Positions 6,661-62,570 of a stretch of DNA of 64,000 bases are shown piece by piece. The stretch's first letter is position 1; each line of letters begins with the position of its first letter. This DNA comes from Candidatus Latescibacterota bacterium (GTDB lineage: Bacteria > Latescibacterota > CBDEFO01). Under the pieces are notes generated by a model. That model was not told the DNA's origin, did not search any database, and was given only the letters and a program-made list of their open reading frames with translations. Location: NCBI GenBank assembly GCA_965237525.1, contig CBDEFO010000003.1, forward strand, positions 320,001-384,000, read 5' to 3'. Made by a program: the position numbers and the translations under genes.

Positions 6661-6907
6661 CCCGAATAATTCACAAAAAAAGGCCGTGTATTAATTAAGG
6701 GATTGTATTATATTATGTTATGCCGTTTAACTACCTTCGGTGTCATTGCGATCCGAAGGCGAAGCAATCTCGATTCGGTGGTAGATGTAATACTCTCCGC
6801 TCTCATAGGAGACCACTATAAAACCTTGAGGTTGCTTCCCCGATAGACTCAATCGGGGACCGCTTTGCTCCTCGCAATGACTCCACCAAGTTTATGAATT
6901 AATCGGG
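6661..6907. mobile_element. ~240-bp non-autonomous element (MITE-like), copy 1
   Basis: Ends CCCGAATAATTCA...TGAATTAATCGGG; inverted near-copy at 31402-31633; internal GTCATTGCG...GAAGCAATCTC palindromes; no ORF. Confidence 0.8.
6838..6858 (+). repeat. 21-bp hairpin repeat, copy 1
   Basis: ccccgatagactcaatcgggg; absent from the MITE copy at 31402-31633. Confidence 0.85.
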
Positions 6908-6923
6908 GGAAAGCATGTAAACG

Positions 6924-7922
6924 TCATTTTATCTCAACCTTCTTTCCGCTCAGAGCAGACTCCACAAGAGCGTCCAGCACTTTCATTTCAAGGTAACCGT
7001 CCTCTCCGCCTGGGTCAGGCTCCTTATCGGACTGAATACACCCTGTAAAATAGTCGATTTCGTTTTTGAACGGATCGCTCTCCTCGAAGCTCTCTTCCCT
7101 GACAGTGTCATCTGTTATGACGTCTATCTTATTCGGTTCGCTACGGCGCCACGGACCGGTGGGAGAACATATCATCCCCTTTTCAGCTACTATCTCGTAT
7201 CGGTTCTGCCTGCTCATTCCGAAGCTGGAGACGAAGGCAGCTATCTCACCTTCATCGAAGTGGAGTATGCCGCAAAATGTCTCATCTACGTCTGCTTTGA
7301 GCGTAGGAGTAACCGATAGGCCCACCACTTCGACCGGTTCCTTCCCCATAAAACGTCGAAAGGTGTTGACACAATAGACCCCGGCGTCCATAAGCGATCC
7401 CCCTCCCATCTTTCTTTGCAGGCGGAAGTCGTCGTGTCTTGGAAGATTAGAGGTAAAGGTAGCGTTCATATATTTTATCTTTCCTATCTCTCCCAAACGT
7501 ACTATCTGAAGCGCCCGCTGATTCATGGGGTCCAACTGCCACATAAAGCCGCTCATAAGTTTGACACTATTTTTTCGGCAGGCTTCCTTCATTTCGAGGG
7601 CTTCCTTTTGGTTCATAGCAAACGGCTTTTCGCAAAGGACGTGTATTCCCCTTTGTACAGCCTTGAGGGTGTATTCTTTGTGCATATTGTTGGGCAATGG
7701 AATATAGAGGGCATCTATGACACCAGAGTCCAAAAGCTCCTCGTAGCTTCCGTAGAACCTCTCCGCCCCGAATTTCTCGCCCTCAGCTTCGGCCTTGGAT
7801 CTGTCACGGCTGGCGATGGCGGCTAGGCTACCTGTTTCGGACCTTGTTAATGCCGGAAGAAAAGAATTCAGAGCGATGCGGGCGCATCCCAACACACCCC
7901 ACCTGATTTTATCTTTCGCCAT
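6924..7922 (-). CDS. Gfo/Idh/MocA family oxidoreductase
   Basis: WGVLGCARIA, HVLCEKP, GGGSLMDAGVY; ATG 7922 after GGAGG. Confidence 0.93.
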   Translation of the reverse strand: MAKDKIRWGVLGCARIALNSFLPALTRSETGSLAAIASRDRSKAEAEGEKFGAERFYGSYEELLDSGVIDALYIPLPNNMHKEYTLKAVQRGIHVLCEKPFAMNQKEALEMKEACRKNSVKLMSGFMWQLDPMNQRALQIVRLGEIGKIKYMNATFTSNLPRHDDFRLQRKMGGGSLMDAGVYCVNTFRRFMGKEPVEVVGLSVTPTLKADVDETFCGILHFDEGEIAAFVSSFGMSRQNRYEIVAEKGMICSPTGPWRRSEPNKIDVITDDTVREESFEESDPFKNEIDYFTGCIQSDKEPDPGGEDGYLEMKVLDALVESALSGKKVEIK

Positions 7923-7996
7923 ATCGAGTCCTCCTGTTCGAAATTCCACAATGAGCAGCAATAGTTAGGAGAAGCTTTATCCGAGATTCCCCATAA

Positions 7997-8080
7997 CACA
8001 TTTTATGAGGGATTATATTTCGATACAATCTTGTTTGAGAATGAATATTACCACTTTTACATTTTTAAGCAAGTACTTTT
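7997..8080 (-). promoter_or_regulatory. Duplicated promoter-like cassette, copy 1 (copy 2 at 29993-30076)
   Basis: Minus strand TTGCTT-16nt-TAATAT followed by a GATTGTAT-CGAA-ATATAATC hairpin; ~85-bp near-identical direct repeat. Confidence 0.55.
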
Positions 8081-8573
8081 TTCAATCAAAATAGCATTTT
8101 CCTCTGAATCATCACTTTCTTTGTGTTTAAATCCTCCAATTAGAGACACCTCTCCATCTACTCACAAAAAATAGTCTTATTTATTGTCATATCAAATGTT
8201 CTGGCAACTTCAACAACCATTCTTCGGGTCTAATATGGGCGATGGGGAGAATAACTGACTGGATTTCTTCTGCGACAAGGAGAAATTCTTCGGACACGAA
8301 AAACTACACATTATGAAGTGCCAGAGAGTCTGACGTAATGAAAGGAAAAGCGTTAGGCGGGGATTTGTACTGGGATAGTCTCAGGAAGAAGACAGATTGT
8401 GGTGTGACCTTTGGCTACTCGTTTCATTTCTAATTTCGACTCATCCCACAAAAGTACGCTTTGGGATACCTGGCGGGACGTGGCAAATTAAATTCCGAAA
8501 GCGAGGAAGGTGGTCTTGCTGAGATAAGCTCCTCATTCTAATTTCACAAGTGCTCACAGAGTACCGAACACAT

Positions 8574-8599
8574 AGCCCGTCAGGAATGGCGGGCTTTTT
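8574..8599 (+). terminator. Intrinsic terminator
   Basis: AGCCCGTCA-GGAA-TGGCGGGCT followed by a T run. Confidence 0.7.
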
Positions 8600-8616
8600 C
8601 TATGGTAATTTCTTTA

Positions 8617-8776
8617 TTGACATTTATCGATATATCGAGTATCTTGATCAATCAAGTCCCTGTGCGATGAAAGTGCGTCGTTTACAAGGAGGAATTGTAT
8701 ATGAGATAGCGCCTTGGAGTATCCTTGATCCCCGATAGATTCAAGCGGGGAGGGATATCTCAGGCGTTTTTCTGTT
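8617..8776 (+). promoter_or_regulatory. Promoter + micro-ORF + terminator leader, copy 1
   Basis: TTGACA-17-TATCTT; AGGAGG; ATG AGA TAG (8701-8709); CGCCT...AGGCG-TTTTT stem; homologous to 33118-33286. Confidence 0.6.
8730..8750 (+). repeat. 21-bp hairpin repeat, copy 2
   Basis: ccccgatagattcaagcgggg in the terminator loop. Confidence 0.85.
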
Positions 8777-8858
8777 TGTACAGGACCTTGGAAAGAGTAA
8801 ACTGTTCAAAACACTGAACTCCGAAGGACTCTGTTCTTTCTTTAAAGGAGGTCGAGCT

Positions 8859-11192
8859 ATGTATAGCTTCTCAAGAATCGTCCTGCCGCTCACAGCTATT
8901 CTGATTGCGCTTTCAACTGCTTTCCCTTGTTCTGCTCAACAGCCGGTCATCAGTGCCCGTCCCTTGGGCATGGGAGAGGCCTTCCTGGCGATAGCTGACG
9001 ATGGCAACGCCCTGTTCTGGAATCCCGCAGGATTGCCCTCTTTGGGGCACCATGAGATTGTCAGCGGCTACACCGATCTGTTCGGAATCGGTATAAAAAA
9101 CAACATAATAGGATACGTCTTCCCTATGGCGAACAACTATGCCCTTGGGTTTGACTGGGCACATTTAAGCTTTGAGGATCCTGAACTGGGTTTTAAGGAG
9201 GACAACTTCAAGTTATCCTACGGGCATAGAGTCTGGAAGGAACTTTCCTTTGGATCTGCTTTAAGATATATCACCACAGATGTGATCCTGGACTCAAACT
9301 CGTTGGGGAAAGGTTCGGGGTGGGGGTTGGATATGAGTTTTCTGTATGTCCCTGTCAAGTGGCTGAGATTGGGGATGGTGGTCCGGGATGTGACAGATAC
9401 GGAAGTGCAGTATGACGACGGAGGATCGAGGGTAATTGATCCAAGATCGTTCCAGTTCGGGACGGCTTATCGGCCTATGGAGGATCTGACTGTGGCTCTG
9501 GATGTGGATGATCAACTCCATTTCGGCGGGGAGTATTGGCTCAGCGATAATATGTTGGGACTGAGAGGCGGCCTGCAGAAGGATCTGGATACCTCGGAGC
9601 CGATGACGTATTCTGGCGGAGCGAGCGTCCGCTATAAGCTGTTCCAGTTCGACTACGCCTATGTCATACCGCCGACGTTGCCCTCCAGCCATCGCTTCTC
9701 CCTGTCCCTCTCCTTCAACTTGTATCCTTCGATGGTGCGGATCACAGAGACAAAGATCAATAACCTGTTCCCGGCGTTCCACTAGCGCTATGGTGTGCAT
9801 CCATTGGGGAATGTGAAATTGGTCAACAGGGACGATAAACCCTATCAGACTATGGTGAGCTTCTATATCCCCAAGCTGATGGATGCCCCTACCGAACAGC
9901 AGGTTATTATCCGGCCGAAGGAGACGAAGGAGGTTGGGGTTAAAGGGGTCTTTTCCAGTTCCATCACCAATTTGACCGAGGATATACTGACGCAGGCGGA
10001 AGTCAGGGTCTCCTATACGACAGAGCGCAGGACGAGGTCGGACAGGGAGTCGGCCAGTTTCTATGTCTACAGTCGCAATGCGACTACCTGGGACGATGTG
10101 GGGAAGGCGGCGGCCTTTATCACATCCAATGACCCAATCATAGGCGAATTTGCCCGGCCGACGTTGGTGGCGCATGAGGAGGAGATCAAGGGCCTGGGGC
10201 GTGGCAGTCGGAATTTGATAAGGGCAATGGTGCTGTTCGATGTGGTGCACCAATATGGGGTGCGCTACATCGCCGATTCCAACAATCCCTACTCCCGAAT
10301 ATCTGCGGACAAATCTGCGGTGGACAACATTCAGTATCCTGTCGAGGTGCTGAGGAAGAAATCTGGAGACTGCGACGATCTCACAGCGCTCTACTGCGCT
10401 CTTTTAGAGAATGTGGGTATTCCCACAGCGTTGGTGGATGCCCCCGGACACATCTATATGATGTTCGACAGCGGTGTTCCCATCCAGAAGGCCTACAGCC
10501 TTCCGATAGGCGAGAAGCTCTATGTGGTTCGGGACGGCAGGATTTGGATTCCTGTGGAGATCACTTTGTTCGGGAAGTCTTTCACCGAGGCCTGGCGGTC
10601 CGGGGCGGGGGAGTCTGCGAGTCTTTTAGAGGAGGACATGCTCAGGGTCGTGGACACCTCGGATGTGTGGCAGGAGTATGAGCCTTCCCCTCCTAAATTT
10701 GAGGGGGAGATTGCCTTTCCAACCAAGGAGGATATAAAGGGAACTTTCTCCACGGATCGGTCAGGTTTCAAGGAGATGATGGACGCCTTTATAGAGCGCA
10801 CCCACCTTGGGCCTCTGGGTGAGAATCCAGAAGATTTTGATCTGCGGTTCAAGCTTGCCCGGGTCTACACAGCGATCCGTGAGTACGACCGTTCTATTTC
10901 CCAATATCAACATCTTTTAGAGACAGATGCGGATCCTGCTCAGGTATATAACAATATGGGGATAGCCTACCTTTTGAAAGGGGAAGTAAAGAAGGCAGCT
11001 CAAGACTTCAAGCGGGCTGTGGACTTGGATCCGACTGATGAGGGGATCAAGGGCAACTTTGAGTTGGCAATGTCCTTTTTGGAGGGAGAAGAGCGGATAG
11101 CGTTTGCAAGAGAGATCGGAGTAGCCGTGCCTGAGGGGGTGAAGGCCGCCGAGTTTGAGGTGGATGAGGAAAGCTTCTACTGGAGGGAATAG
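8859..11192 (+). pseudogene. PorV/PorQ-like outer-membrane barrel fused to transglutaminase-like and TPR domains; interrupted by in-frame TAG at 9783
   Basis: Signal peptide; ARPLGMGEAFLAIADDGNALFWNPAGL and FDYAY...HRFSL barrel motifs; GDCDD, PGHIY and WIPVE; TPR YNNMGIAY; ORFs 8859-9785 and 9795-11192 share one frame. Confidence 0.75.
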
Positions 11193-11227
11193 GGATCGCT
11201 GATCTACCCCGACGAAAGGAGCAAGAG

Positions 11228-27324: not shown

Positions 27325-27335
27325 AGGAGGACCGA

Positions 27336-31401: not shown

Positions 31402-31633
31402 GCCCGATTAATTCATAAACTTGGTGGAGTCATTGCGAGGAGCAAAGCGACGAAGCAATCTCAAGGTTTTATAGTGGTCTCCTATGAGAGCCGGAGAGTA
31501 TTACATGTACCACAGAATCGAGATTGCTTCGCCTTGGGCTCGCAATGACACCGAAGGTGGTTAAACGGCATAACTATAATATAATACAACTCCTTAATTA
31601 GTACACGGCCTTTTTCTGTGAATTATTCTGGGG
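31402..31633. mobile_element. ~230-bp MITE-like element, copy 2, nested in the ISL3
   Basis: Inverted copy of 6661-6907; flanked by TAGTA on both sides (31397-31401 and 31634-31638). Confidence 0.8.
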
Positions 31634-32621
31634 TAGTAAGAACAAACAAATACAGGAGGGGGTACAGGATCCCTAGTGACATCAGAGCAGAATGGCTTAA
31701 TCTGCCGAAAGTAAGAGTTAATCACGTAACTAGCCATAGTGACAGCACTGAAATTTATCTGGATCGAGATGTTCCGTTGGACTTTACTTGCTCTGGCTGT
31801 GGCCAGATATCCTTCCGGAGTTGGGATTGTCGGCAATCCAGGATTAGAGATCTGTCAGTTTTTGAATTTAAGGCTTATCTGGTCATAGATAAATATCGCA
31901 GCAATTGTCTAGTTTGCGGGGTGAAGATTGAAAGGCTTGACTTTGTTGATTCTTATTCCCGAATGCACTACCAGATTTGAGGAACTTGTAGCCAGACTCT
32001 GCCGAATAACCAGCCTCAAGCAAGTAGCCGAACTCCTTGACTTGGACTGGAAGACAGTCAAAGCAATTGACAAGAAGTTCCTGGAGAAACAGTTGTCCAT
32101 TCCGGACTACGACGGCTTAAGGATTCTAGCAGTAGATGAGGTAGCTTCCCATAAAGGCCATAACTACTTTACGGTCGTTTTGGATCTAGATCAAACCCGG
32201 GTAGTCTGGGTCGGCAAAGGTCGAATTGAAGAAACCCTGGATCGGTTTTTCAAAGAACTGGGCCCACAAAGGAGCAAGCGAATAGAGGCAGTAGCCTGTG
32301 ATATGTGGGACCATACATCACCTCTATCAAGGAGCACGCTCCAGGGGCCAAAATAGTATTCGATAAATTCCACGTTATCAAAACTACTGCAAGATCATAG
32401 ATAAAATCAGAAATATCGAGTTTAAGAAAGCTACCGAACAGAACAAAGAGGCCATCAAAGGCACTAAATACCTCCTACTTAAGAATCGAGATAAACTAAA
32501 TAATGATCAGAAAGAGCAACTTTGCAGATTGCTTGAGTTAAACCAGAACATAAACATCACCTATATGCTCAAGGACGATCTTAAAAGGCTCTGGAATTAT
32601 AAATCTGCCGGCTGGGATAAT

Positions 32622-32642
32622 CCCCAATTGATTCTATTGGGG
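32622..32642 (-). repeat. 21-bp hairpin repeat, copy 3 (inside the ISL3 transposase)
   Basis: Minus strand ccccaatagaatcaattgggg, with a compensatory A-T pair in the stem. Confidence 0.75.
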
Positions 32643-33117
32643 ATGTCTTGACTGTTGGATTAGCACCGCCGTAGCCAGTAATATCAAACCCCTTATGATA
32701 TTTTGCTCAGACTCTGGATAACTATCGCTACGGTCTTATTAACCACTGCTATTACCCCATAGACACCAGCAACTTAGAAGGAATGAATAACAAGATCAAA
32801 GTCATCAAACGCATCGCCTATGGATTTCACGATGACGCCTACTTTATCCTGCAAGATCAAACAAGGATGCTCAGCCCCATTGGATACTGAATAGCTAAAA
32901 TAAAGTTCTATTGCCCAAAGAGATCGGATTCAATGTGGATATTGATCCGAGCCATAAACCTTTGACTTAACCACATTGTTACAATCCCTAACGCGACCCT
33001 AAAATCCCTTCATTATTTACCTAATTACCACTATTAACTTATACAAAAACTCAAGACACCATGAAACAGAATTACCCGCTACTACACTTTTGGGAGAAGA
33101 CCTAAATTATAAAGCTC

Positions 33118-33286
33118 TTGACAACTCTAAGAGTGTTATGTATTCTAAATGGTGTTGCACAGGCGATGAAAAATGCATAATTTGCAGGAGGGGCTGTCTA
33201 TGAGAGAACTGTAGATAGCGCCTTAGAGTATTCTTGATCCCCGATAGATTCAATCGGGGAGGGATGTTCTGGGCGTTTTTCTGTTT
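33118..33286 (+). promoter_or_regulatory. Promoter + micro-ORF + terminator leader, copy 2
   Basis: TTGACA-17-TATTCT; AGGAGG; ATG AGA GAA CTG TAG (33200-33214); stem plus T run homologous to 8617-8776. Confidence 0.6.
33239..33259 (+). repeat. 21-bp hairpin repeat, copy 4
   Basis: ccccgatagattcaatcgggg. Confidence 0.88.
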
Positions 33287-36260: not shown

Positions 36261-36261
36261 G

Positions 36262-36282
36262 CCCCGATTGAGTCTATCGGGG
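36262..36282 (-). repeat. 21-bp hairpin repeat, copy 5
   Basis: ccccgattgagtctatcgggg, 1 bp after the tkt stop codon. Confidence 0.88.
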
Positions 36283-36304
36283 ATCAGGAGAAGGAGGACG
36301 GAGC

Positions 36305-39855: not shown

Positions 39856-40767
39856 ATGGAACTGGCATTGGTCGGTTTAGGCAGGATGGGTGCCAATATA
39901 ACCACGCGCTTGCTGCGCGGTGGTCACCAGATTGTTGCCTACGATCTGAATGAGTCTGTTATTCAGGCGGCCGAGGGCGAAGGCGCAGAAGGGGCGCGTA
40001 CGCTGGCCGAGGTGGCGGAAAAATTGCAGATGCCGCGAGTCGTGTGGATCATGGTGCCAGCCGGGGACCCTACGGAGCAGACGATCGAGGAACTGGCCGA
40101 GCATCTAACGCCCGGCGACACGGTTGTGGACGGTGGCAACAGCAACTACAAGGACTCGCTGCGGCGTGCGGACACGCTCCAAGAGAGGGAACTGCATTTC
40201 GTGGACGTGGGTACCAGTGGCGGCGTGTGGGGGCTGACCGAGGGCTACAGTATGATGGTCGGAGGCGAGGTAGCAGCTATAGAACGGCTGCGCCCCATCT
40301 TCGAGACGCTGGCCCCGGCGCCGGACAAAGGCTGGGGGCACGTCGGTCCCAACGGAGCAGGCCACTTCGTGAAGATGGTGCACAACGGCATCGAATATGG
40401 CCTGATGGAGGCTTATGCCGAGGGGTTTGAATTGATGCAGCACAAGACAGAGTTCGGCCTGGACATGCACCAGATCGCTGAAATCTGGCGCGACGGCAGC
40501 GTGGTGCGCTCCTGGCTGCTGGATCTGACCGCAAAGGCGCTGGCTGAGAACCCGGCACTGGAGGGCATCGCTGCCTACGTGTCCGATTCTGGTGAGGGAC
40601 GCTGGACGGTGGTCGAAGCGATCGAATTGAACTGTTCCATTCCTGTCATCACCCTGGCGCTGGAGCGTCGTTTTCGCTCCCGAGAAAAAACGCCTTTCAG
40701 TGACAAGTTGCTGGCTGCTATGCGCCATCAGTTCGGCGGTCATGAGATCAAGGAGGAGGAGGAGTCC
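39856..40767 (+). CDS. gnd: 6-phosphogluconate dehydrogenase (short type); no stop codon, reads in frame into zwf
   Basis: GLGRMG, DGGNS, DVGTSGG, GHFVKMVHNGIEYG, DSGEGRWT, MRHQFGGH. Confidence 0.92.
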
Positions 40768-42226
40768 ATGCCCAACGCCAGTATCGAACACCACCTCTTT
40801 GTGATCTTGGGCGTGACGGGCGACCTCACGCGCCGTAAGCTGCTCCCGGCCGTCTACCACCTGACGGCCCAGGGGATTCTGATGGATCGCTGTTTGATCG
40901 TTGGCGTAGCCCGGAAAGCGGATCTCGATGACAACGGTTTCCGGGTCTGGGTGCGTGAGATCCTCAAGGACGCCGGGTTTTCAGTTATAGCACTCGAACG
41001 CTGGTGTGACCGATGTCTCTACTATCGGCCCATCGGAGGGGGGAGCAGCGAGGACTATCAGGCCCTAGCAGATCGCATCAAAGCCCTGGAAGGGGAGCAC
41101 AATCTGTCTGGCAACCGGGCCTTTCTACCTCGCCCTGCCACCCACCGCCTTTCCCGATGCCATCGCGGGACTCGGAGAGGCCGTGCTGAATGACACCCCC
41201 GGCTGGACACGCCTTGTGATAGAAAAGCCTTTCGGGCGAGATTTGCATTCGGCTCAGGAACTGAATCGCCTGGTTCACAGGTATTTTGATGAATCCCAGG
41301 TGTATCGCATCGATCACTACCTGGGAAAGGAGACCATGCAGAATCTGCTCGTCTTTCGCTTCGCCAACCCGATCTTTGAATCCCTCTGGAACCGCGATCG
41401 TGTGGAAAGCGTTCGGAGCACGGTCGCCGAGGAGCTGGGGGTCGAAGGACGGGCGGATTACTACGAGGGGACCGGCGCGTTGCGGGATATGGTGCAGAAC
41501 CACCTGACCCAGTTCCTGGCACTGATTGCGATGGAGATTCCAACGAGCTTCGAGTCGGATGCCATTCGCCACGAGAAGATGAAGGTGCTGCGCTCTCTGG
41601 CACCGCTTCGGCCCGAGCAGGCGGTTCTGGGTCAATATACACGCGGGGAGGTTGATGGACACGAGGTGCCCGGTTATCGGGAAGAACCGGATATTGCCCT
41701 CGATTCCCGGACCGAGACCTTTGTGGCCCTGCGTGTGGAGGTGGACAGTTGGCGCTGGCAGGGGGTGCCCTTTTATCTCTGCACCGGCAAGCGGCTCTCT
41801 TGGAAGCTGACCCAGATCGACGTGGTTTTCCGGGAGCCTCCTATCTGTTTCTTCCATGCCTTTGAGGCGTGCAAACCCAATCCCAACGTGCTTAAAATCT
41901 CCCTTCAGCCCGACGAAGGGTTTGACCTGTGTTTTGAAGTGAAGGCACCGGGCGAGTCTCTTGAGTTGAAATCACAGACGCTGCATTTTGGATATCAGGA
42001 TGCATTTGGTTCCCCACCGGATGCATATCAGACCCTGATCCTGGATGTGATGAAAGGGGATCAGACGCTCTTTATACACGGGGATGAAGTCGAAACCTCC
42101 TGGCGATTTTATGCCCCGTTGCTGGCGACGGAAAACGCCGTGAATTTCTATCGTGCCGGCACATGGGGTCCGCAAGAGTCGGATCAACTCCTGGCTGAGA
42201 GGGGACAGCGATGGGAAATCACGTGA
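40768..42226 (+). pseudogene. zwf: Glucose-6-phosphate 1-dehydrogenase with a +1 frameshift at 41122-41124
   Basis: GVTGDLTRRKLLPA, EKPFG, RIDHYLGKE, LRDMVQNH; removing one T restores AFYLALPP. Confidence 0.9.
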
Positions 42227-42963: not shown

Positions 42964-43138
42964 AAGGTCGCCTGCAGACATAATAACGTCTATCTGGTCA
43001 TTTGGATGGACGTGTTCACGATGCCGGTTGAGGACGAGGGGTACCGCATTGTGGTCGCCTCAGATGTCAAAAGCGGCCTTGCAACAGATAAAGACGGTGC
43101 ATCCGGACCTGGCGGTATTTGTATATCTGGGGGAGTCG

Positions 43139-45167
43139 ATGCAACAACCTGCACGATATATCGCTTTAGGGCGGGCCGATTGTGGTCGCTTTGAGAGTGC
43201 CGTCGAGAAAGAATGGCTGGTCACCAATGGCCTGGGCGGGTTCGGGGCGGGCACCGTGAGCGGGGCTACCACCCGTCGCTACCACGGCCTGCTCGTGGCC
43301 GCCCTCCGCCCTCCCCTGGAACGGACTGTGTTAGTTGCCAAGATCGATGCGGTTGCTGAGTACAATGATAAGCCCTATCCCCTCTTCGTCAACGAGTTCG
43401 CCGACGGCACTATTGATCCGCACGGTTATCGGCACCTGGAAACGTTTCATCTGGAGGGCCTGATCCCGGTTTAGGTCTATGCTCTGGCCGATGCTCGCCT
43501 GGAGCAACGAGTCTGGATGGCCTACGGACACAATATAACCTACATCACTTACACCCTGACCAGGACTGCAAACCCTCTATCGTTGCGGCTGACTCCCCTC
43601 TGCACCTATCGTGACTACCACAGCCATCGTCACGGAGACTGGCATCTTGCGTATGATCCTGTGACCGGGGGCTTTGAAGTCAAGGCCTTTGATGGCGCTC
43701 GGCCTTATCGGGTCGTAGCCGACCGGGGTGAATTTTGCCCTACTGGAGATTGGTACTTTAACTTCAAGCACCGGCTTGAAAGCTACCGGAGACTGGATGA
43801 TACCGAAGACCTCTTCGCACCGGGTCATTTCAACGTGATCCTCAACCCTGGCGAGACACTCACCGTCGTTTGTTCGGCGGAGATAGTCGAGACCCAAGTC
43901 GGGCTCGAGGCACTGCAACAGGAGCGCCAGCGACAAGCCGCGCTATTGGCAGACACATCCGTCGACGAACCGGCTTGGATCAGCCACCTGGCGCTGGCCG
44001 CCGACCAGTTCATTGTGCAACGTGCACATGGAGACGAGAGCCCTTCAAGTGGCACTGAAGAAATGAAGACCGTGATCGCTGGTTATCCCTGGTTCGGCGA
44101 CTGGGGACGCGATACGATGATCGCGCTGCCGGGGCTGACCCTCTCCACGAAACGGCCCGAGGTCGCCGCCAGCATCCTGCGCACCTTCGCTGGGCACGTG
44201 AGCCAAGGGATGCTGCCCAACCGCTTCCCCGATACCGGCGAGCCACCGGAGTATAACACGGTTGATGCCACCCTCTGGTATTTCCACGCCATCCACCAGC
44301 ACTTGCTTCACACAGGTGACATAACCCTGGCCAGAGAACTCTATCCGACCCTGGCCGACATTATTGACTGGCACAGACGCGGCACTCGCTACAACATCCA
44401 CGTTGACCCCACCGATGGCCTGCTCTTTGCCGGTGAGCCGGGGGTACAGTTGACCTGGATGGATGCCAAAGTGGGCGATTGGGTGGTCACTCCCCGTATC
44501 GGCAAGCCGGTCGAGGTCAATGCCCTGTGGCACAACGCCCTGCGGGTGATGGCAGACCTGTCGGAGCGACTGCGCAAGTTGAAAGCAGCCAAGCAGTACC
44601 GCGAGCAGGCCGATCTGATGGCCAACATCTTTCGAAAGCGGTTCTGGTTTGAGGCGGGCAGGTACCTGTACGACGTCATTGATGGCCCGGAAGGAGCCCT
44701 TGGTCCCAATGGAAAACGGTACGACCGCAGCGTACGTCCCAACCAGATTTTCGCCGTCTCCCTGCCTTTCTCGTTGCTGAGCGACACCCAGGCCCAAGCC
44801 GTCGTCGACATCTGCGCCCGCCATCTCTTGACTTCTCACGGCTTACGCAGCTTGGCAGATGAAGACCCGGCCTACACCGGGCACTACCGGTGGTGGCTCC
44901 CTCCAACGCGACGGCGCCTATCACCAGGGCACCGTCTGGGGCTGGATTCTCGGCCCGTTCGTGGCCGCCCACTACCGGGTCTACGGCGACGTGACCCTTG
45001 CACAGTCCTTCTTATCCGGCTTGGAATACCACCTGTCCGACGCCTGTCTGGGCTCCATCAGCGAGATTTTCGACGGCGACCCTCCCCACACGGCGCGCGG
45101 ATGTTTCGCTCAGGGCTGGAGCGTGTCGGAGGTGCTGCGGGCCTGGAGAGAGTTACCTGATGCGTGA
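43139..45167 (+). pseudogene. Amylo-alpha-1,6-glucosidase (glycogen-debranching type); TAG at 43472 and frameshift near 44888
   Basis: EWLVTNGLGG, TRRYHGLL, AGYPWFGDWGRDTMI, LTWMDAK, AYHQGTVW, GCFAQGWS. Confidence 0.9.
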
Positions 45168-48891: not shown

Positions 48892-49080
48892 CGTTTCCCG
48901 GAGGGTCTACTGCCGTGCGGTGGACAGTGCAGCCGTTAGGTGCGTGACAAAGCGTGATCGCATTTACTTTTTATTGTTTCGTGTAATCAAAACTGTAGTG
49001 CTCCCCTGGAAGGCGACATCAATTGAGCACCCTGAGGCAGCAGATAAGATTTTCTTTCCCATTCTTGTGGAGTTCTGCAT

Positions 49081-49101
49081 CCTTGATAGATTCAATCGGG
49101 G
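49081..49101 (+). repeat. 21-bp hairpin repeat, copy 6
   Basis: ccttgatagattcaatcgggg at the point where the IS1595 transposase breaks off. Confidence 0.8.
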
Positions 49102-49531
49102 ACAATAACCTTACCTTCGGCACCCCAACCTGGCTTACCTGGTCTCTTGCCACCGAACATAGTCTCATCTCTCCGGATAGGAACCTCAACTCCTCCAGAG
49201 AGCTTTGATAGACAGCGAGACGTACCATATGGTAGAAATGTTCAAGAGTATGTAGATGTACTGGAACTCGGAACCTTAATCGGTAAGCTGGAACCGCAAG
49301 ACAAAAAAACTCAAGAAACCTCCCCTTCCAATAGGGAGAAATCTTGCTCCTAGACCAGTAAGTATTGGCTCGGAAACGGTAGCTTCTTCGGCATCGTTCA
49401 CAACGATATCGACCATCCGACAGTTTCCAAAATTTGGTGCACCTAAAGTAGATACATTTTGGCACACCTTAATATGCAGTCATAATGAACTCTTCGCAAT
49501 ATATAAAGTTGCCTAATGTTGTAGCATTACC
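49102..49531 (-). mobile_element. IS1595-family transposase remnant
   Basis: N-terminal zinc ribbon (C..C...YRCERC); DETMFGGKRPGKPGWGAEGKVIV in a shifted frame; truncated. Confidence 0.8.
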
Positions 49532-53115: not shown

Positions 53116-53152
53116 GGAGGATGGGATGCAGTGCCCCCTCTCTACCCCCGAT

Positions 53153-53173
53153 CCCCAATAGATTCAATCGGGG
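53153..53173 (+). repeat. 21-bp hairpin repeat, copy 7
   Basis: ccccaatagattcaatcgggg next to the purD stop codon. Confidence 0.85.
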
Positions 53174-53174
53174 G

Positions 53175-54452: not shown

Positions 54453-54490
54453 TTAACACCTCGCGAAAGTCACATCTGTGTGGATTGTCA

Positions 54491-54555: not shown

Positions 54556-54962
54556 TCCTTATCGCCAATATCCGAACTCTCTCAGATCTGAATCCTTATT
54601 TCTCCAATCTTTTCTGACCTTGACCCACAGGTCTAAATATACGGGTGTTTGGAGGAAATCCTCTATTTTGACTCTGGACGCCCTGCCTATGGATTTGAGC
54701 GACCTCCCCTTTGCACCTATGACGATGCCCTTTTGAGATTCTCTCTCCACAAATATATTGGCGCTGATGTAGGTCTTTTCTCCTCTCTTCGTGAATTCCT
54801 CTACAAGCACAGCTGTCGAGTACGGGATCTCCTCTCTCAACCGGTCGAACACCTCCTCCCGTATCAACTCCGAGACGAAGAACCTTTCAGGTTGTTCAGC
54901 GATCACGTCCTCCGGATAGAGACGAGGACCAGAAGGGAGATATTTTTCGAGCAGGACTCTAA

Positions 54963-56481
54963 AAGCCTTGTGAAAAACCCTTAGATTCAGAAAGTAGTAT
55001 AGAACAAGCATTGATAAAGCAGCTCCGATGTATTATATTATGTTATTGATAATATTATACATGGAGGAAACAATGACCCCACAAAAGCAGGAACAGACAA
55101 ATCCGATGTTTCACTATTTTCAGATGGAGGATTTAGTTCCCGAGGATCATATCCTTCGTCAGATTGATGAGGCAGTTGATTTTTCATTTGTACGAGACGT
55201 TGTATCAGATTGTTATTGCCCTGACAATGGCAGACCCGGTATTGATCCTGAATTAGTTGTTCGAATGATCCTTATTGGCTATCTGTATAATTTGAGTGAG
55301 AATCGGCTCTGTCAGGAAGTGGGGATGCATGCGGCATATCGGTTGTTTTGTCATCAGACATTTGATGATGCGGTTCCGGATAGGAGCACGATCAACAAGC
55401 TTCGCAATCACAAGTGGGCATCCAGTGGGTTGTTTGAACGGATAATGCGTCAGGTAGTCCAGTGTTGCATAGATGTCGGTCTTGTGAGCGGTAAACACCT
55501 TAGTGTCGACGGCACTCAGATACAAGCTGATGCTTCAGTGAAAAGTATTGAGCCGATAGAACCCCCTGTTTCTCTTGATGATTATCTCAAGGGAATCGGT
55601 TTTGAAGGTGATAAGACAAAGGGTAGGTCCGGGCATCCTCAGGATAAAGACTTTCATGGTGAAAAGTGGACGAACCAAACACACCGTTCGACTACAGACC
55701 CCGACGCGCGCTTATACAGCAAATCGAAGGGCAAAGGGGCTTTTCTCTCGTTTATGGGCCATGATCTGATCGACACAAAAAGCAGAGTAATCCTTGAGAC
55801 TCAGGGCACGCAGGCGACAGGGACAGCAGAGCCCGAAAGTGCCCTTAAGATGGTAGATGACCTTGAAACATACACCATGCCCAAAGACATTCAGACACTT
55901 AGTGCCGATACCGGTTACGGTTCTGGTAATTTTATCGCTGATGTACTTGACCGGGGAATCATACCCCATATTCCTCTGCGAGCCGATGAGAAGATTGAAC
56001 CGATTCCTACATGGAAAAACAAGACAAATTCAGCACATATTCAGGCCGAACGGGATAGAAAAGTGCGAGAGGCGAAAGCCAGAAATCATGCACGGTCTAT
56101 CTCATTAACAGCTGACTACAAACTCTCCCAGAGACTCCGTAAACGCAGTGAACATATCTTTGCTGAAGCCAGGCAACAACACGGTATGGGACGAGCCCGT
56201 TATAGAGGACCAGCCTCACTGAATGAACAGTTGAATCTTGTTGCAACAGTACAGAATCTCAAGAGGCTTGTATCTTTCATAAGAAGGGGGAAAGCGTCTA
56301 TGTGTGCCCTGTCTGTCAAAGACAGTGCACCCTGTTCTTCAAACAGCTCCTGTTCCTTGCTGACCAGAACTCTGATAAGACTATTTTGCTTATTCCACAG
56401 CAAAACGATACGATATGCTACTCTTTGACCCATAATCGGCGCTTCAGACGCTGCCTGGGACATAACTATTTCACAAGGCTT
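54963..56481 (+). mobile_element. IS1182-family insertion sequence, intact
   Basis: 13-bp perfect inverted repeat AAGCCTTGTGAAA; 4-bp target duplication CTAA (54959-54962 and 56482-56485). Confidence 0.92.
55073..56428 (+). CDS. IS1182-family transposase
   Basis: LVPEDHILRQID, GRPGIDP, PDRSTI, VDGT, STTDPDAR, ADTGY, R...EHIFAE; ATG 55073 after GGAGG. Confidence 0.92.
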   Translation: MTPQKQEQTNPMFHYFQMEDLVPEDHILRQIDEAVDFSFVRDVVSDCYCPDNGRPGIDPELVVRMILIGYLYNLSENRLCQEVGMHAAYRLFCHQTFDDAVPDRSTINKLRNHKWASSGLFERIMRQVVQCCIDVGLVSGKHLSVDGTQIQADASVKSIEPIEPPVSLDDYLKGIGFEGDKTKGRSGHPQDKDFHGEKWTNQTHRSTTDPDARLYSKSKGKGAFLSFMGHDLIDTKSRVILETQGTQATGTAEPESALKMVDDLETYTMPKDIQTLSADTGYGSGNFIADVLDRGIIPHIPLRADEKIEPIPTWKNKTNSAHIQAERDRKVREAKARNHARSISLTADYKLSQRLRKRSEHIFAEARQQHGMGRARYRGPASLNEQLNLVATVQNLKRLVSFIRRGKASMCALSVKDSAPCSSNSSCSLLTRTLIRLFCLFHSKTIRYATL

Positions 56482-57044
56482 CTAAGTCGATCCAGATTTC
56501 TTCCGTAGAGCGCTGAGATGGGTATCACTTCGTCTTTTGATTCAAGCTCGACCAGTTGGGAGATCATTACGATTACGTCGTCAGATGAGATCAAGTCTGC
56601 CTTGTTGAGCGCAAGAATTAGCGGAATCCTTATATCCTGAAGCCTGTTCTTTATATGCTCATCGAAAGTGTCCTCAAAGCGACACGCATCTACCATCAAC
56701 AGGGCCACGTCGGCCTCTTTTATTGAGTGGTCCAGCTGTCTGCCCATAGCCTCTTGGAGTCTGTATTTGGGCTTTAGGACACTGGGCGTATCCAGGAAGA
56801 TCATCTGAGACGTTGCACTCGTCGCTATGCCCAGGACGTTGGTTCTGGTGGTCTGCGCCTTGGGCGTAACGATGGAGAGCTTCTGTCCTATAAGCGCGTT
56901 AAACAGCGTAGACTTGCCGACATTGGGCTTTCCTATTATGGCCACATAGCCGCTTTTGTATGCGTCACCTGGGGAGATATCCCCCTCTCTATTCGTGTCT
57001 TTCAAGGATTGTTCCATATCAGGAAGGGACGGAAGGACTCATCT

Positions 57045-57854
57045 TTATAGACTCTGCTTCGCGTATCTAACAGCGTTTTGGAAGATAGCCATTCCATCCC
57101 CTCTTTCTTTAAGCCCCTCTCTGGTCCATCTGGGATGCTGCGTGGGATGAATGTGCCTTTCAGGGTGAGGCATCAGACCGAATATCCTTCCCGTTAGATC
57201 GCATATTCCAGCTATACGATCCGTCGAACCGTTGGGATTCCAGGGGTAGCCCGCTGGATTTCCGTGATCGTCAACGTATCTGAGGACTATCTGACGGCTC
57301 TCCACAAGGGCAGACAGTGTCTCTTGGTCTCTTGTTATGAATTTTCCTTCGCCGTGCGCCACGGGTAGATATATCTTGCTATCTAGATCCTGTGTGAAGA
57401 CGCACTTGGTCTCTTCGTCTTTTTCCAGATAGACCCATCTGTCTTCAAATTTTCCGGAGTCGTTGTTTGTGAGCGTGGCCTCAACCAGTGGGGCTTCCGC
57501 CTGTGGCTTGTAAGATCCCTCCAAAACCTGAAGGAGTCCCGCTTTGACGAGGGCCTGGAAGCCGTTGCATATGCCGATTACGAGCTTTCCGTCCGCTATG
57601 AACCTCCCAATCTGATCGTAAAGTTTGTACCTGAGTTCGTTGGCAAGTATCTTGCCGGCTGCGACATCGTCTCCGTAGGTGAAGCCTCCGGGAAGGGCGA
57701 GGATGTGATACTCGGAGAGGAAGGAAGGAGCTTCTATTACGCGTTTGATATGGATCAGACTCGTCTCGGCGCCTGCTTGCTGGAGGGCAAACTCGGTCTC
57801 CTGGTCGCAGTTGGTTCCGGCGGTCCTTAATATTATGGCTTTGACTTCCGCCAT
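57045..57854 (-). CDS. purQ: Phosphoribosylformylglycinamidine synthase I
   Basis: GTNCD, PGGFTYGD, GICNGFQ, PVAHGEG, NPNGS, GLMPHPER. Confidence 0.96.
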   Translation of the reverse strand: MAEVKAIILRTAGTNCDQETEFALQQAGAETSLIHIKRVIEAPSFLSEYHILALPGGFTYGDDVAAGKILANELRYKLYDQIGRFIADGKLVIGICNGFQALVKAGLLQVLEGSYKPQAEAPLVEATLTNNDSGKFEDRWVYLEKDEETKCVFTQDLDSKIYLPVAHGEGKFITRDQETLSALVESRQIVLRYVDDHGNPAGYPWNPNGSTDRIAGICDLTGRIFGLMPHPERHIHPTQHPRWTREGLKERGDGMAIFQNAVRYAKQSL

Positions 57855-57860
57855 TATCCC

Positions 57861-59267
57861 CTAATCCTTATATTCTTCAGAATCTATCCCGAATTCGTCC
57901 ATCAATCTTTTTAGATGTCTCGGAGTTATTTCAAGAATCAAGGCGGCCCTACCGATTGTACCTTTGGATTGGGAAAGGGCGTTGTCCAAGATTTCAAATT
58001 TAGCCCTGTTCACCGCTTCTCTTAGAGTCAGGCCTCCGATCTGGTTTTCATCGGGGGAAAGAGAGGATTCTTCAAGCTCCCGGTACATTTCAAGCTCTAA
58101 ATCTTCAGGCTCGATGTATCTATCGCTCCCGCCGAACAGGAGGGAATTCTCTATAGCGTTTTTGAGTTCTCTGACGTTTCCGGGCCAATCGTATCGGGAG
58201 ATCTTGTGTAAGGATTCGTCGGAGAGTTGTTTGTATATCTCAAGGTTTTTGGAGTACAGATCCAGGAAGTATTCGGCAAGGAGAGGTATGTCGCTCCTGC
58301 GCTCTCTTAAGAGAGGCAGTTCTATGATAGCGACTCTGAGCCTGTGATAAAGGTCGTCCCGGAACTGGCCCGATTTCACAAGTTCGGAGAGGTCTCTGTT
58401 CGTGGCGACGATGATTCTGGCCTCAAGTTGCAACTGACTATTTCCGCCGAGGCGTTCGAAGGTCCTGTCCTGGAGCACCCTTAAGAGCTTGATCTGCACC
58501 TCTATGGGGATGTTCTCCACCTCATCCAGAAAGAGCGTCCCGGAGCCTGCCGACTCCAGCTTTGCGATGCGCCTCTGCGTGGCTCCGGTGTAGGCTCCCT
58601 TTTCGTGTCCGAATAGTTCGCTAGATGCAAGGTCAGGCGAAGTCTTTGAGACATCGGCGACCACAAAGGGGGATCTACCGCTCAAGGTGTGTATAGCCCT
58701 TGCCACAAGTTCTTTGCCTGTTCCGGTCTCCCCCTTTATAAGGATTGTGGAATCTACACGAGCGGCTTTTTGTATCCTGTCGAAGACCTTGAGCATCTCT
58801 TCGGATTTCCCTATGATTCCCATAAACCTATCCGACTCGTTGAGCCTCTCTTTGAGTCTTTCGTTTTCGCGCTTGAGATCTGCTCTTTCCAATGCCCTAT
58901 CTACAATGACAGAAAGGACATCCCTCCTCACGGGCTTTTCTAAGAAATCGTAGGCTCCCGACTTGAGCATTGCCTCTATCTTGGTGGCATCTCTTTGCGA
59001 GCCACTGATCACGACGACCTCTGTGGAGCGGTCCTTCTTTCTGACAGCGCTTAAAAACTCGAGCCCGTCTCTGCTGCTTCCCGTGTCGAATTTGAGATCC
59101 AGGAGGATAAGGTCCGGCTTTGCGCGTTCATATTGCCTTAAGCCCTCTTGAGGGTCTGAGGCGATAACGACCTTGCAGTCCTTGGAAGAGAGTATCTCAG
59201 CGTAGAGGTCTCTATTGTACTCTTCGTCTTCGACTATGAGGATAGTATATCTGATCCGAGAGTCCAT
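57861..59267 (-). CDS. NtrC-family sigma54-dependent response regulator
   Basis: Receiver domain (EDE, LLD, KP); GETGTGKE, GAYTGA, FLDE, WPGNVREL; HTH. Confidence 0.95.
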   Translation of the reverse strand: MDSRIRYTILIVEDEEYNRDLYAEILSSKDCKVVIASDPQEGLRQYERAKPDLILLDLKFDTGSSRDGLEFLSAVRKKDRSTEVVVISGSQRDATKIEAMLKSGAYDFLEKPVRRDVLSVIVDRALERADLKRENERLKERLNESDRFMGIIGKSEEMLKVFDRIQKAARVDSTILIKGETGTGKELVARAIHTLSGRSPFVVADVSKTSPDLASSELFGHEKGAYTGATQRRIAKLESAGSGTLFLDEVENIPIEVQIKLLRVLQDRTFERLGGNSQLQLEARIIVATNRDLSELVKSGQFRDDLYHRLRVAIIELPLLRERRSDIPLLAEYFLDLYSKNLEIYKQLSDESLHKISRYDWPGNVRELKNAIENSLLFGGSDRYIEPEDLELEMYRELEESSLSPDENQIGGLTLREAVNRAKFEILDNALSQSKGTIGRAALILEITPRHLKRLMDEFGIDSEEYKD

Positions 59268-59284
59268 CGTCTATTGCTCCAAAA

Positions 59285-59645
59285 CAGTAGACAGATTGTA
59301 GGGCCGAGGCGCCCTGGGTGCTCTGTTGATAGGGGACAAGCCACAAAGTGGTCGCCTCAAGGGCAGACCTATCTGTCTGCCCTTACATATAGATATATAC
59401 ATAGGGATGAACCTTCCCCATGAATGTAGGGGCGTTCCCCGATAGATTCAATCGGTGACCACTCATCCCAGGGGCAGATACACGGGTCTGCCTCTACAAC
59501 AGATGTACGAACATGCCTTTACGAATGTGAGAGCTTCCCCCACGCGTTCGCTCCCTACCCACGTCGCCGCCTTCTTTCCAAGCCGTCATTGCAAGGATGC
59601 CTGCCCGCGAACGATTGTATCGGGGGTTCGCCCCGAAGCAATCTC
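59285..59645. repeat. Composite repeat cluster (heptamer, GTAG-REP, 21-bp hairpin, GTCATTGC palindrome)
   Basis: cagtagacag; gggcagac...gtctgccc units; gtaggggcg; gtcattgc...gaagcaatctc. Confidence 0.72.
59437..59457 (+). repeat. 21-bp hairpin repeat, copy 8
   Basis: ccccgatagattcaatcggtg inside a GTAGGGGCG REP unit. Confidence 0.82.
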
Positions 59646-59673
59646 CGTTAGACTGCCTCTCCCTGTATGCAGT

Positions 59674-61128
59674 CTACTTGTCAGTCACCGGAAGTTTGAC
59701 GATGAAGGTAGTGCCGGCCCTGACCTGGCTTTGGACGTCAATGGCCCCGCCATGTTTTTTTACCACTTCAAGGGACCCAGGAAGTCCGATGCCCATGCCG
59801 CCCTTCTTGTCGGTGGTGAAGAAATTGAATATATCCCGAATCTTCTCCTCCGGTATTCCGATCCCTGTGTCGCTGAACTTGATCTCTGCGCTCCGGCTAT
59901 TATGCCCCTTGATGTCGATGGACAAAGAACCGCCGTCTTCCATCGCCTGATAGGCGTTTAGAACGATATTCGAGAAAACATCTACCATCTGTTCGGGATC
60001 GACTTCTATCGGCGAAACGTCTTTGCTGTACTCTTTGTGAACCTGTATATTCTCGGGCCTGGGAATTCTGTTCAGAGAGGCGTCTATGAGGGTGGGGATA
60101 CTGTAAGGCTCTTTTCGCGGCTCGTCGGGAACGGCTCTCCTCATCCTGCTTATGTCCTTTTTGACCAGCCCCAGATGTCTGTCTATTCCATCCAGCGCCC
60201 TTTCGAGCCTGAGATCGGACGTGCCCCCTTTGAGTGTCCTTTCTCTAATTTCGGCAGCAAACGTATCTATAGGATTGAGGAGGTTGCTGATATTGTGGGC
60301 TATCCTCCAGGTGCTCCTTCCTACCACCGCCAGTCTTTCGGACTCCTTCAGTTCATCCTGATGCTTCTTAATCTCAGAGAGCATGTATTTAAAGGCTCTG
60401 GAAAGCCCTCCTATCTCGTCGATTCTATCTATGCCTGAAATATCTGCGTCCAATGCTCCTCCCGACGGAGTCGAGGCTCGACCTATTTTCTGGACATCTT
60501 CTGTGAGCCGCTTTATGGGCTTTACCGTCTGTCTTATAAGAACATAGAAAAATGTAAGAGACAGCAGCGCGGCGGATAGCCCCACGATGCTCAGAATAGG
60601 TACAGTAGACATCACAGGGCGGTAGTAGCCTATCTTGAGGACAAATTCCCCGCGGTCCGATTCTATCCTCACTCCCACATCCTGTACCATCTCTCCCCTG
60701 TAGCGTATCTCATCGGAGATGATACCTTTGCCGTTATAGAGAAGCTCTTCTACGAGGATGTAATCTCTGGGATCAGTGGAATACCCCTGTTCCTCCTCAA
60801 CGTCTGTGGAAAGGAGGAACAAATGATCTTCACCTATTATCTTGATGTAGGCTATAAAGTCGCTCTTGTATTTGCTCTTGAGGAATTGGAATACAGCGTT
60901 TGCGGTGTAGTTATCTACGAGGGAACTTACAATATTGGCGACTTCTTTGGTTATGGGTTCGTATCCCTTTTCGAACATCTGGGTTTCATATTGTCGTCTT
61001 TCGAGCATTGTGGATATGAGGGAGAAGAGAGCGACGACCAGTATGGATATTACGAATATAACCGTAGTCTTAAAGAGTATACCGACACGGAATCTGCGCT
61101 CGATCCCTTTGACTTCGACCTCACTCAC
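59674..61128 (-). CDS. HAMP-domain sensor histidine kinase
   Basis: Two TM segments; HAMP (DEIGGLSRAF); IAHNISNLL H-box; NIVLNA, DTGIGI, GMGIGL; GTG 61128 after GGAGG. Confidence 0.92.
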   Translation of the reverse strand: MSEVEVKGIERRFRVGILFKTTVIFVISILVVALFSLISTMLERRQYETQMFEKGYEPITKEVANIVSSLVDNYTANAVFQFLKSKYKSDFIAYIKIIGEDHLFLLSTDVEEEQGYSTDPRDYILVEELLYNGKGIISDEIRYRGEMVQDVGVRIESDRGEFVLKIGYYRPVMSTVPILSIVGLSAALLSLTFFYVLIRQTVKPIKRLTEDVQKIGRASTPSGGALDADISGIDRIDEIGGLSRAFKYMLSEIKKHQDELKESERLAVVGRSTWRIAHNISNLLNPIDTFAAEIRERTLKGGTSDLRLERALDGIDRHLGLVKKDISRMRRAVPDEPRKEPYSIPTLIDASLNRIPRPENIQVHKEYSKDVSPIEVDPEQMVDVFSNIVLNAYQAMEDGGSLSIDIKGHNSRSAEIKFSDTGIGIPEEKIRDIFNFFTTDKKGGMGIGLPGSLEVVKKHGGAIDVQSQVRAGTTFIVKLPVTDK

Positions 61129-61246
61129 TGATCTATCGCCTCCATCCGAAAGACAGTAGTCACTGGAAAGTGCATATCCGCCTATGTATAAAAATGTAAC
61201 GATATTAAGGTCAAAAAGCAACCTTATTGTGAACCCCCATAAACAA

Positions 61247-61273
61247 AGTAGACAGTAGACAGGGCACCGCCTC
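61247..61273 (-). repeat. GAGGCGGTGCC-(CTGTCTA)n heptamer element
   Basis: Same element at 62531-62583 and 63610-63648. Confidence 0.75.
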
Positions 61274-61351
61274 ATATCCCATTTTTTTGTGTTTCAGTCA
61301 AAAAATCTTTCCCCATATAGGAAGATTGCGGAACATAGCGAACCTTGCGGC

Positions 61352-61380
61352 TTGACATACGAAACGATAGAGTATATACT
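61352..61380 (+). promoter_or_regulatory. Sigma70 promoter
   Basis: TTGACA-17-TATACT upstream of 61419. Confidence 0.65.
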
Positions 61381-61418
61381 TATAGACACAAATGAGCAAT
61401 AGATAAGGGAAACCATGT

Positions 61419-62406
61419 ATGGGAACTGAGACTTACACAAAGGTACCAAACGATATTATGGAAGGAATTTTGTGCAAGGGATTGCTCTCAAAAAGAGAAT
61501 CTCAAATCTTCTGTGTCATACTCAGAGAAAGGTATAACGGCCAGTGGACAGTACGTCCTCCAAGCGTTCAAAAGATCGCCGACTTTACTCGACTTGATAG
61601 AGCAAATGTATCCACTACTATAGGACAGATGCTGAAGAAAAATATCATAAGACAAAGAGACGGAAAGAAAGGAAGATACTATCAAATTAATACAGATCCC
61701 CCAACTTGGATCACTAAAGGTTGTCAAAACAACAACAATTGTTCCTCTAATCCATTGTCCCACAAGGCGATGCCGAGTCCGAAGGAAGTACCTAAAGGAA
61801 GTATCTAAGAAAGTATATGATGAAGGTGGTAGTACGGTCGCTACGGAACCAGACGAGACAGCATCGAAGTCTCTACAGACTTCAGCTTCAGCATCATCTT
61901 TCATAGAAATTCTATCGCAGAACATACCCGACTTCCTCGAAGACGGAAGGATACTTGAAGTAGTTAAGCGATGCATCGAAGAGGACCCAGATGTAGATGA
62001 ACGGCAGATTGCCCAGAACTTCATAAACTGGAAGGATCGCCCTACACTTACTCCCCAAAACATCGAATCCATCATTCAAAATCAATTTAGAACTGCCAGG
62101 GAAAAGGGCTATTATCGCAAAGAGAGGAAGATAAACCGTCACCCTGGACAGATCCGAAAGACAAAGCAGTACATAGAAGAACTGAGAGAAACAGACGGCG
62201 AGTTAGAGTCACAAACCCCTGAGGAGAGACAGGCAAAATGGGCAGGCATTAAGCAAATAATGGAGGAAAGCTTAAGAAAGGCTAAAGAGTTTAGAAAAAG
62301 GAAGGAGTCCGCTAACCGAGACTTCAAGAGCGGCAGAATAAGCAGAGAGGAGTACGATAGCATCTTGAAGCAGATTCGCGATGAGGCGCGGGATGCCTGG
62401 GGATAA
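61419..62406 (+). pseudogene. Phage replication protein O-like initiator, +1 frameshift at 61794-61796
   Basis: YTKVPNDIME...LSKRESQIF.VILR...IADFTRLDRANVS winged-helix N-terminus; a second frame stays open to TAA 62406. Confidence 0.68.
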
Positions 62407-62442
62407 GGAGAATCAGCAGACAAGCAAAGGCGAAGGTTAGCT

Positions 62443-62487
62443 ACCCCCCTTTAATTCCCCCCTTATTAAGGGGGGACACAGGGGGGT
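62443..62487. repeat. C/G-run nested palindrome (REP-like)
   Basis: ACCCCCCT-TTAAT-TCCCCCCTTA-T-TAAGGGGGGA-CAC-AGGGGGGT. Confidence 0.65.
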
Positions 62488-62549
62488 GACACGAAGACTA
62501 TCTTTTGCCAGGCGTGCCTTGGTGGCTGAAGAGGCGGTACCCTGTCTAC

Positions 62550-62570
62550 CCCCGATAGATTCCATCGGAG
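62550..62570 (+). repeat. 21-bp hairpin repeat, copy 9
   Basis: ccccgatagattccatcggag interrupting a heptamer element, between CTAC direct repeats. Confidence 0.8.

Follow-up and report, generated by a model that had tools for sequence, protein, structure and literature searches.

The subject of this work is a 21-bp hairpin, nine copies of which lie in both orientations in a 64,000-nucleotide stretch of a Candidatus Latescibacterota genome (assembly GCA_965237525.1, contig CBDEFO010000003.1, positions 320,001 to 384,000), hereafter the window; 0.00 copies would be expected there by chance. An earlier note, made from the letters of the window alone, placed all nine copies correctly and took the hairpin for an ultra-short non-autonomous mobile element or an excision footprint. 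It was followed up in the whole genome to which the window belongs (G000: 4.58 Mb, 8 contigs, 96.6% complete) and in a sister genome of the same genus (G001: a single contig, ~95% identical in aligned blocks), the comparison with which covered 2.8 of its 4.54 Mb. Coordinates below are those of the window unless a contig or locus is named, and those of the copies enclose 23 nt, the 21-mer together with one adjoining base on each side.

Copy 1 (6837..6859, plus strand, ends T..A) belongs to a miniature inverted-repeat transposable element (MITE) of ~140 nt, where it occupies the right arm; the MITE is built as a dimer of CGTC-type repetitive extragenic palindromes (REPs). As had been noticed before, this MITE (6742..6881) is filled, while the second one in the window (31429..31549; neither is assigned a strand) is empty. 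The empty allele had been read as GT, but it is the trinucleotide CGT (31450-31452 in the second MITE) that is replaced by the 21-mer plus AC, with a net gain of 20 nt. A filled form of the repeat represented by the second MITE was found in contigs from three public runs. Copy 2 (8729..8751, plus, T..A) is intergenic, and the orthologous site of G001 is filled as well; copy 4 (33238..33260, plus), an exact consensus, has flanks in common with it, and the window copies represent, as was proposed, at most eight independent events. Copy 5 (36261..36283, minus) separates tkt from tal/pgi, and its counterpart in G001 contains 12 extra internal bases. Three further copies are common to both genomes: copy 6 (49080..49102, plus), exactly at which an IS1595 remnant stops, as described, copy 8 (59436..59458, plus), lying within a GTAG-type REP, and copy 9 (62549..62571, plus, C..G). 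The latter belongs to a TGTCTAC heptamer element, which is indeed filled at 62531 and empty in the paralogues at 61247 and 63610. The CTAC repeats seen around it are present but are not a target duplication, since such sites swap a dinucleotide with a net size of +19. Copy 7 (53152..53174, plus) also sits in a heptamer repeat and is preceded by a left-arm fragment, that is, it is nested; the same site in G001 carries a copy in the opposite orientation, due to either independent insertion or inversion. The break of IS1595 at copy 6 reflects no general rule, because hairpins mark synteny breaks no more often than random sites do (59/205 copies versus 159/541), and the idea of a rearrangement hot spot was rejected.

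Copy 3 (32621..32643, minus) lies inside an ISL3 transposase and, as reported, carries A-T instead of the G5-C17 pair (the compensatory A5-T17 allele). Removal of 22 bp restores the reading frame, as the earlier note had it, but at the cost of one residue. The distance from the first W to the second W is eight residues in all 20 ISL3 homologues readable by motif search (of 34), the commonest spacer being A-N-R-C-L-D, and the spacing W-A-N-R-C-L-D is kept in intact homologues. Based on this spacing, the true net size is +19, the hairpin having replaced the CG of an Arg codon. Both ISL3 copies of G000 are filled (the second at C3:434200), and no empty ISL3 copy was found in G001.

The unit, its mobility and its junctions

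Counting as a site any match to the 21-mer with up to three mismatches, as the earlier note had suggested, gave 552 sites in G000, of which 117 are exact, while 196, 151 and 88 have one, two and three mismatches, respectively. A few of them are counted twice, since a stretch of C4 (546000-550000) recurs nearly identical on contig C2. G001 carries the hairpin in similar numbers, with 292 sites in the compared 2.8 Mb. The bases abutting the 21-mer pair with each other at 442 of the 552 sites versus 262 expected, while pairing at positions beyond them does not exceed expectation. The T..A flank considered usual before is found at 270 sites, but C..G is also common (169). Because of these flanks we regard the moving unit as 23 nt long, the 21-mer with a paired T..A or C..G end. 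As DNA it folds with approximately -7.5 and -7.2 kcal/mol, one value for each strand. Among the 399 unrelated G000 loci used for statistics the G5-C17 pair is swapped for A-T at 15 and for T-A at 7, that is, 22/399 versus 4.1 double changes expected.

Several relatives of the unit were registered in G000. A shorter sibling of 17 nt shares the arms of the hairpin, has 15-20 copies and is itself targeted by the 23-mer. A tailed subfamily, in which the hairpin is followed by ACAGG or ACAAG, has an inserted unit of 27 nt; its insertions are often in frame, and tandem ones occur as well (examples at G000:C8:739909-752608, C5:12150 and C3:248697). Outside the hairpin, about 41 copies of a motif consisting of the left arm followed by TATCCAT may represent the end of an insertion sequence (IS).

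The flanks could be matched to an orthologous place in the partner genome at 230 of the 552 sites in G000 and at 203 of the 292 in G001. The alignment of flanks to a related genome, which had been recommended as a check, thus yielded empty alleles at 98 of 433 resolved sites, the partner genome being empty at 62 G000 sites and 36 G001 sites; the other 335 are common to both. At one site of a high-copy IS of G000, 133 copies are plainly empty and one is filled, and the proportion at another site is 136 to 1. Since this excess of empty copies and the spacing in ISL3 homologues both point to gains and not losses, the direction is gain wherever it can be read.

The sizes and edges of insertions were estimated from 61 de-duplicated events, 37 of the 98 rows having been dropped as duplicates or because their net size fell outside 15-30. 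Within this range the commonest net sizes are +19 (14 events), +27 (12), +20 (10), +18 (9) and +21 (6), with 10 others. Filled and empty alleles agree least right beside the hairpin, with an identity of 0.33 at position -1 and 0.39 at +1, which rises to 0.67-0.82 at bases 2-5 and reaches ~0.9 beyond, and the end bases are paired in 51/61 filled versus 14/61 empty alleles. Judging from this identity profile and from the pairing, each insertion brings in the full 23 nt, replacing the base on either side, and in many cases 2-5 further bases of the target are lost to it. No fixed target duplication was detected under any definition of the ends, only occasional repeats of 4-5 nt (552 sites, 61 events). 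CG stands at the junction in 17 of the 39 events of +18 to +21, versus 11.7% in flanks. All 14 events within long open reading frames (ORFs) are multiples of three, versus 18 of 47 elsewhere (p=2e-5), so that the size of insertion varies and selection filters it.

Landing sites and distribution

Other small repeats are the favoured landing sites: such a repeat holds or adjoins 229 of the 399 unrelated copies, versus 194 of 2000 random intergenic positions. The overlapping classes of targets include the hairpin itself (120 loci), CGTC-REPs (62), heptamers (59) and GTAG-REPs (28). The earlier suggestion that the hairpin often lands in other hairpins therefore holds as a preference for repeats at the level of sequence, but not as one for structure, empty targets folding no better than the intergenic background (p=0.18). 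The MITE, with 53 copies in G000, is filled at the hairpin site in 37, and G001 lacks it at the corresponding place for 13 of the 19 loci that could be resolved. Because of this absence, and because both ISL3 copies are filled, some hairpins should be regarded as passengers.

According to crude gene calls, on which the counts of orientation and of divergent spacers rest as well, most copies (401/552) are intergenic. The hairpin interrupts transposases, and 59 copies stand in frame in the middle of genes, in long ORFs (at least 600 nt), adding short peptides such as SPIDSIGD. Relative to transcription the two orientations are even (132 versus 136), and no replichore bias was evident by eye. Spacers between divergent genes are under-used, with 47/370 sites versus 21% of intergenic length; together with the 59 copies inside long ORFs this argues against a regulator-binding site confined to promoters, a possibility raised in advance.

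Among the 168 genomes of the phylum the hairpin is abundant in two and single-copy in a third. It also occurs, among the matches listed, in Deltaproteobacteria, the PVC group and other records, and 8 of 11 carrier genomes from other groups, picked for having a match, gave 8-59 strand hits. Of 45 readable metagenome contexts, 34 have C..G and 9 T..A ends, with no recurring neighbour protein among these loci. No match was found in viral contigs, plasmids (one 51-nt query) or Rfam. Since the distribution is patchy across phyla, it suggests horizontal spread. In the deltaproteobacterial loci L026 and L031 the hairpin is seen within a TGTC-REP dimer with a similar arm and within TTTCTAA heptamers, there with the GCTA right flank that is also met in G000. 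Judging by sequence, the hairpin stem resembles the TGTC-REP arm beside the copy in L026, which is a possible origin.

Two other features of the window deserve mention. A DUF772/DDE transposase (55028-56428) belongs to a ~1.55-kb IS with more than 130 copies in G000 versus 7-8 in the 2.8 Mb of G001, and this excess is a recent burst. The frames of gnd/zwf (39856-42226) and of a glycogen-debranching gene (43028-45160) are split, being either pseudogenes or assembly errors.

How the hairpin may spread

We give a probability of about one half to the reading that the hairpin is a 23-nt selfish element spreading by short-patch copying from an existing copy, with host functions likely doing the work. 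A single-stranded piece with a hairpin copy would fold and bring its two short flanks side by side; the juxtaposed flanks could then pair with a target resembling them, as happens in SPDIR (short-patch double illegitimate recombination), and host repair or replication proteins would probably build the annealed donor in. Once inside a repeat, be it the hairpin itself, a REP or a heptamer, a copy would make other members of this repeat better targets. Filled MITEs and IS copies also carry it as a passenger. In SPDIR, microhomologies allow ectopic single strands to anneal, and the micro-indels that result vary in size, from 3 to ~100 bp (bioRxiv 2023.11.22.568220). Unlike the spread of the hairpin, SPDIR is a mutation process of low frequency whose donors are arbitrary, and not a self-amplifying element; in the text consulted of a second SPDIR preprint (2024.07.02.601687) hairpins go unmentioned.

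Copying from a donor is indicated by several comparisons. Three distinct MITE loci common to both genomes are filled in G000 and empty in G001, with the standard junction. One of them keeps shared locus-specific single-nucleotide differences on both sides, the nearer ~10 nt away, and since excision cannot restore overwritten bases, a short templated exchange took place there, in either direction. Unrelated loci with at least 5 nt in common on both sides number 87/399 versus 27 in the null, shared host repeats contributing to the excess. Linkage between internal alleles and flanking bases extends over ~3-11 nt at unrelated loci (for instance, 12/17 versus 5/382, p=1e-15). New junction bases were closer to the flank of another copy than the empty allele in 32 versus 9 of 48 events, and outside repeats (32 events) a donor was found for 18 of the 23 new tracts of at least 4 nt versus 9.8 expected. 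The support for donor copying is thus real but moderate, and a number of observations weigh against it. Nested compounds moving as units contribute to the linkage of alleles and flanks. They also inflate, together with host-repeat consensus, the count of 32 versus 9, and a sign test over all 30 tracts outside repeats gave 18 versus 11 (p=0.26). Stem compensation is confined to one of seven pairs, with nearly none at the other six, and the loop is as conserved as the stem except for positions 10 and 11 (399 loci in both cases), which could mean that a protein reads the sequence; enrichment of CG at junctions could likewise mean a nuclease or methylation cue. For wild-type A. baylyi, the reported frequency of SPDIR events is ~1e-12 per cell (bioRxiv 2023.11.22.568220). 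Finally, RecJ, MutS and SbcD are all present, and a loss of recombination safeguards (recJ, mutS, sbcD) was accordingly discarded as an explanation.

The same conserved loop, the CG at junctions and the preference for REP-type repeats are what one would expect if a trans-acting enzyme of a mobile element (HUH/RAYT-like, GIY-YIG or an unrecognised nuclease, perhaps lost) nicked near CG and left ragged repair behind. The near-precise insertion of the fixed 27-nt tailed subfamily, Y1 genes in 11/11 other carrier genomes searched and a small GIY-YIG gene of G000 that has CGTC-REPs on both sides favour it too. We nevertheless consider such an enzyme rather unlikely. No Y1 transposase (Y1_Tnp, PF01797) and no Y2 transposase was found in G000 or single-contig G001. 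G000 has one IS110 and the one small GIY-YIG gene; G001 has neither, its only GIY-YIG gene being of UvrC length, yet 36 of its hairpin sites are empty in G000. No copy lies within ~1.5 kb of the 34 Y1/GIY loci examined, nor in 12 Y1 loci taken from other carriers (of ~79 matches). The CGTC tag is met at 1/552 sites ([TC]GTCAT on the left in one, its mirror on the right in 0/552, GTAGC on the left flank in 15), and junctions vary and overwrite end bases, so the HUH/RAYT-type mover proposed in the earlier note was not supported. The search for a RAYT, IS200 or IS110 gene flanked by copies, which it had also advised, revealed none: in G000, 50 genes stand between copies, but they are a mixed set with no candidate mover, and Y1, GIY-YIG, reverse transcriptases, IS110, Y2 and four-helix-bundle proteins were rejected as candidates, being patchy among carriers and never bracketed. 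One stand-alone small GIY-YIG gene (L204, G000:C4:479893-480114), which has a TGTC-tagged REP on each side, the two inverted to each other, and stands between two copies of a duplicated gene end, is a REPtron-like unit with a non-Y1 nuclease; nothing on a unit of this type was found in the literature searched.

Replacement templated by RNA or cDNA of transcribed copies, a mechanism proposed for the yeast element GC42 (PMC4478555), would suit the fact that most copies stand between co-directional genes and some within genes, many of them probably being transcribed, and reverse transcriptases exist in G001 (two), G066 and G068. It is improbable, given that RVT_1 is absent from G000 and G061, that orientation to transcription is even, and that the copy beside a reverse transcriptase of G001 is a passenger within an IS. 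By eye, a retron-like reverse transcriptase of G001 (L340:1387-3273) is IS-interrupted and adjoins a 301-aa partner gene. Even less probable is a host-functional site (protein binding, terminator or chromosome organiser) of local origin kept by selection. High copy number, conserved sequence and the 335/433 resolved sites common to G001 agree with it, but as an origin it is largely refuted by broken transposases, in-frame copies in long ORFs, depletion between divergent genes, abundance in only 2/168 phylum genomes and gains of the whole unit. Hardly credible is the suspicion that the hairpin is an excision footprint of a longer element or an adapter or assembly artefact. Its palindromic ends resemble joined inverted repeats, but a search of G000 for longer elements bounded by these arms found none whose length recurs, alleles and positions are common to two species, and contigs of other runs bridge copies. 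Such contigs from public runs span copy 3 (X2, X3) and copy 5 (X1, possibly the source sample itself), demonstrating presence and not population polymorphism. With filled and empty orthologues, gain as the direction, and neither artefact nor promoter site behind it, the hairpin is the ultra-short non-autonomous mobile element that had been proposed.

Related small repeats and biological meaning

The closest likeness is to the small dispersed repeats (SDRs) of Nostoc and its relatives. Elhai and colleagues reportedly described in 2008 SDR1-8 of 21-27 nt with compensatory changes and nesting in themselves, in heptamer repeats and in mini-transposons, and we know of no enzyme for them. The hairpin shares the dispersed character and the reported length range, compensation (here at one stem pair) and nesting in itself, heptamers and MITEs, and filled and empty orthologues are seen here. 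It differs in occurring outside Cyanobacteria and across phyla, the comparison being one of descriptions. By analogy, the hairpin appears to work as Nostoc SDRs do. It also resembles Rickettsia palindromic elements, which are in-frame insertions in genes. SDR5, given as 21 nt long (PMC13756078), is said to insert in the HIP1 sequence GCGATCGC between bases 3 and 4, a site containing CG (PMC4390886); in that account it is precise at one octamer, whereas the ends of the hairpin vary, bases are overwritten and there is no fixed site.

With the REP/REPIN-RAYT systems the hairpin has in common a short stem-loop and hundreds of copies, mostly extragenic and some in frame (PMC3733652, PMC3116915), but it has no tag and no RAYT and inserts into REPs instead of being one. 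CGTC REPs are likewise described without a known transposase, their mobilisation being left unexplained in the text consulted (PMC3733652). Unlike MITEs, the hairpin has neither a fixed-length target duplication nor ends shared with a longer autonomous IS. SMR repeats of Haloquadratum also lack target duplication and use palindromes of other elements as targets, but they are larger (80-110 nt versus 23 nt with overwritten ends), and the available text leaves their mobilisation unexplained (PMC3119063). GC42 of yeast mitochondria is palindromic too and shows flank co-conversion, but has 42 nt and an AG duplication in place of 23 nt with overwritten ends (PMC4478555). No description of the hairpin itself was found in the literature searched, which included few subscription journals.

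Thus, the hairpin is real and mobile, resembles the SDRs, overwrites its targets by a rule that can be read and has spread across phyla; no mover was found for it, and it is among the smallest mobile DNAs. It mutates its host by breaking transposases and adding short peptides to 59 long ORFs. The function of SDR5 is called unknown in the sources consulted. The pair of genomes provides 61 readable junctions and a rule (a 23-nt unit, overwritten ends, CG bias and variable size) that makes the movement of repeats shorter than 30 nt testable with a simple reporter. Tentatively, the hairpin may be an enzyme-less 23-nt replicator that parasitises short-patch microhomology recombination, converting look-alike sites and every repeat it enters, adding inserts of 5-9 residues to proteins and crossing phyla as short DNA. 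If this is true, no selfish genetic element would be more minimal, and the SDRs as a class would find their explanation in it.

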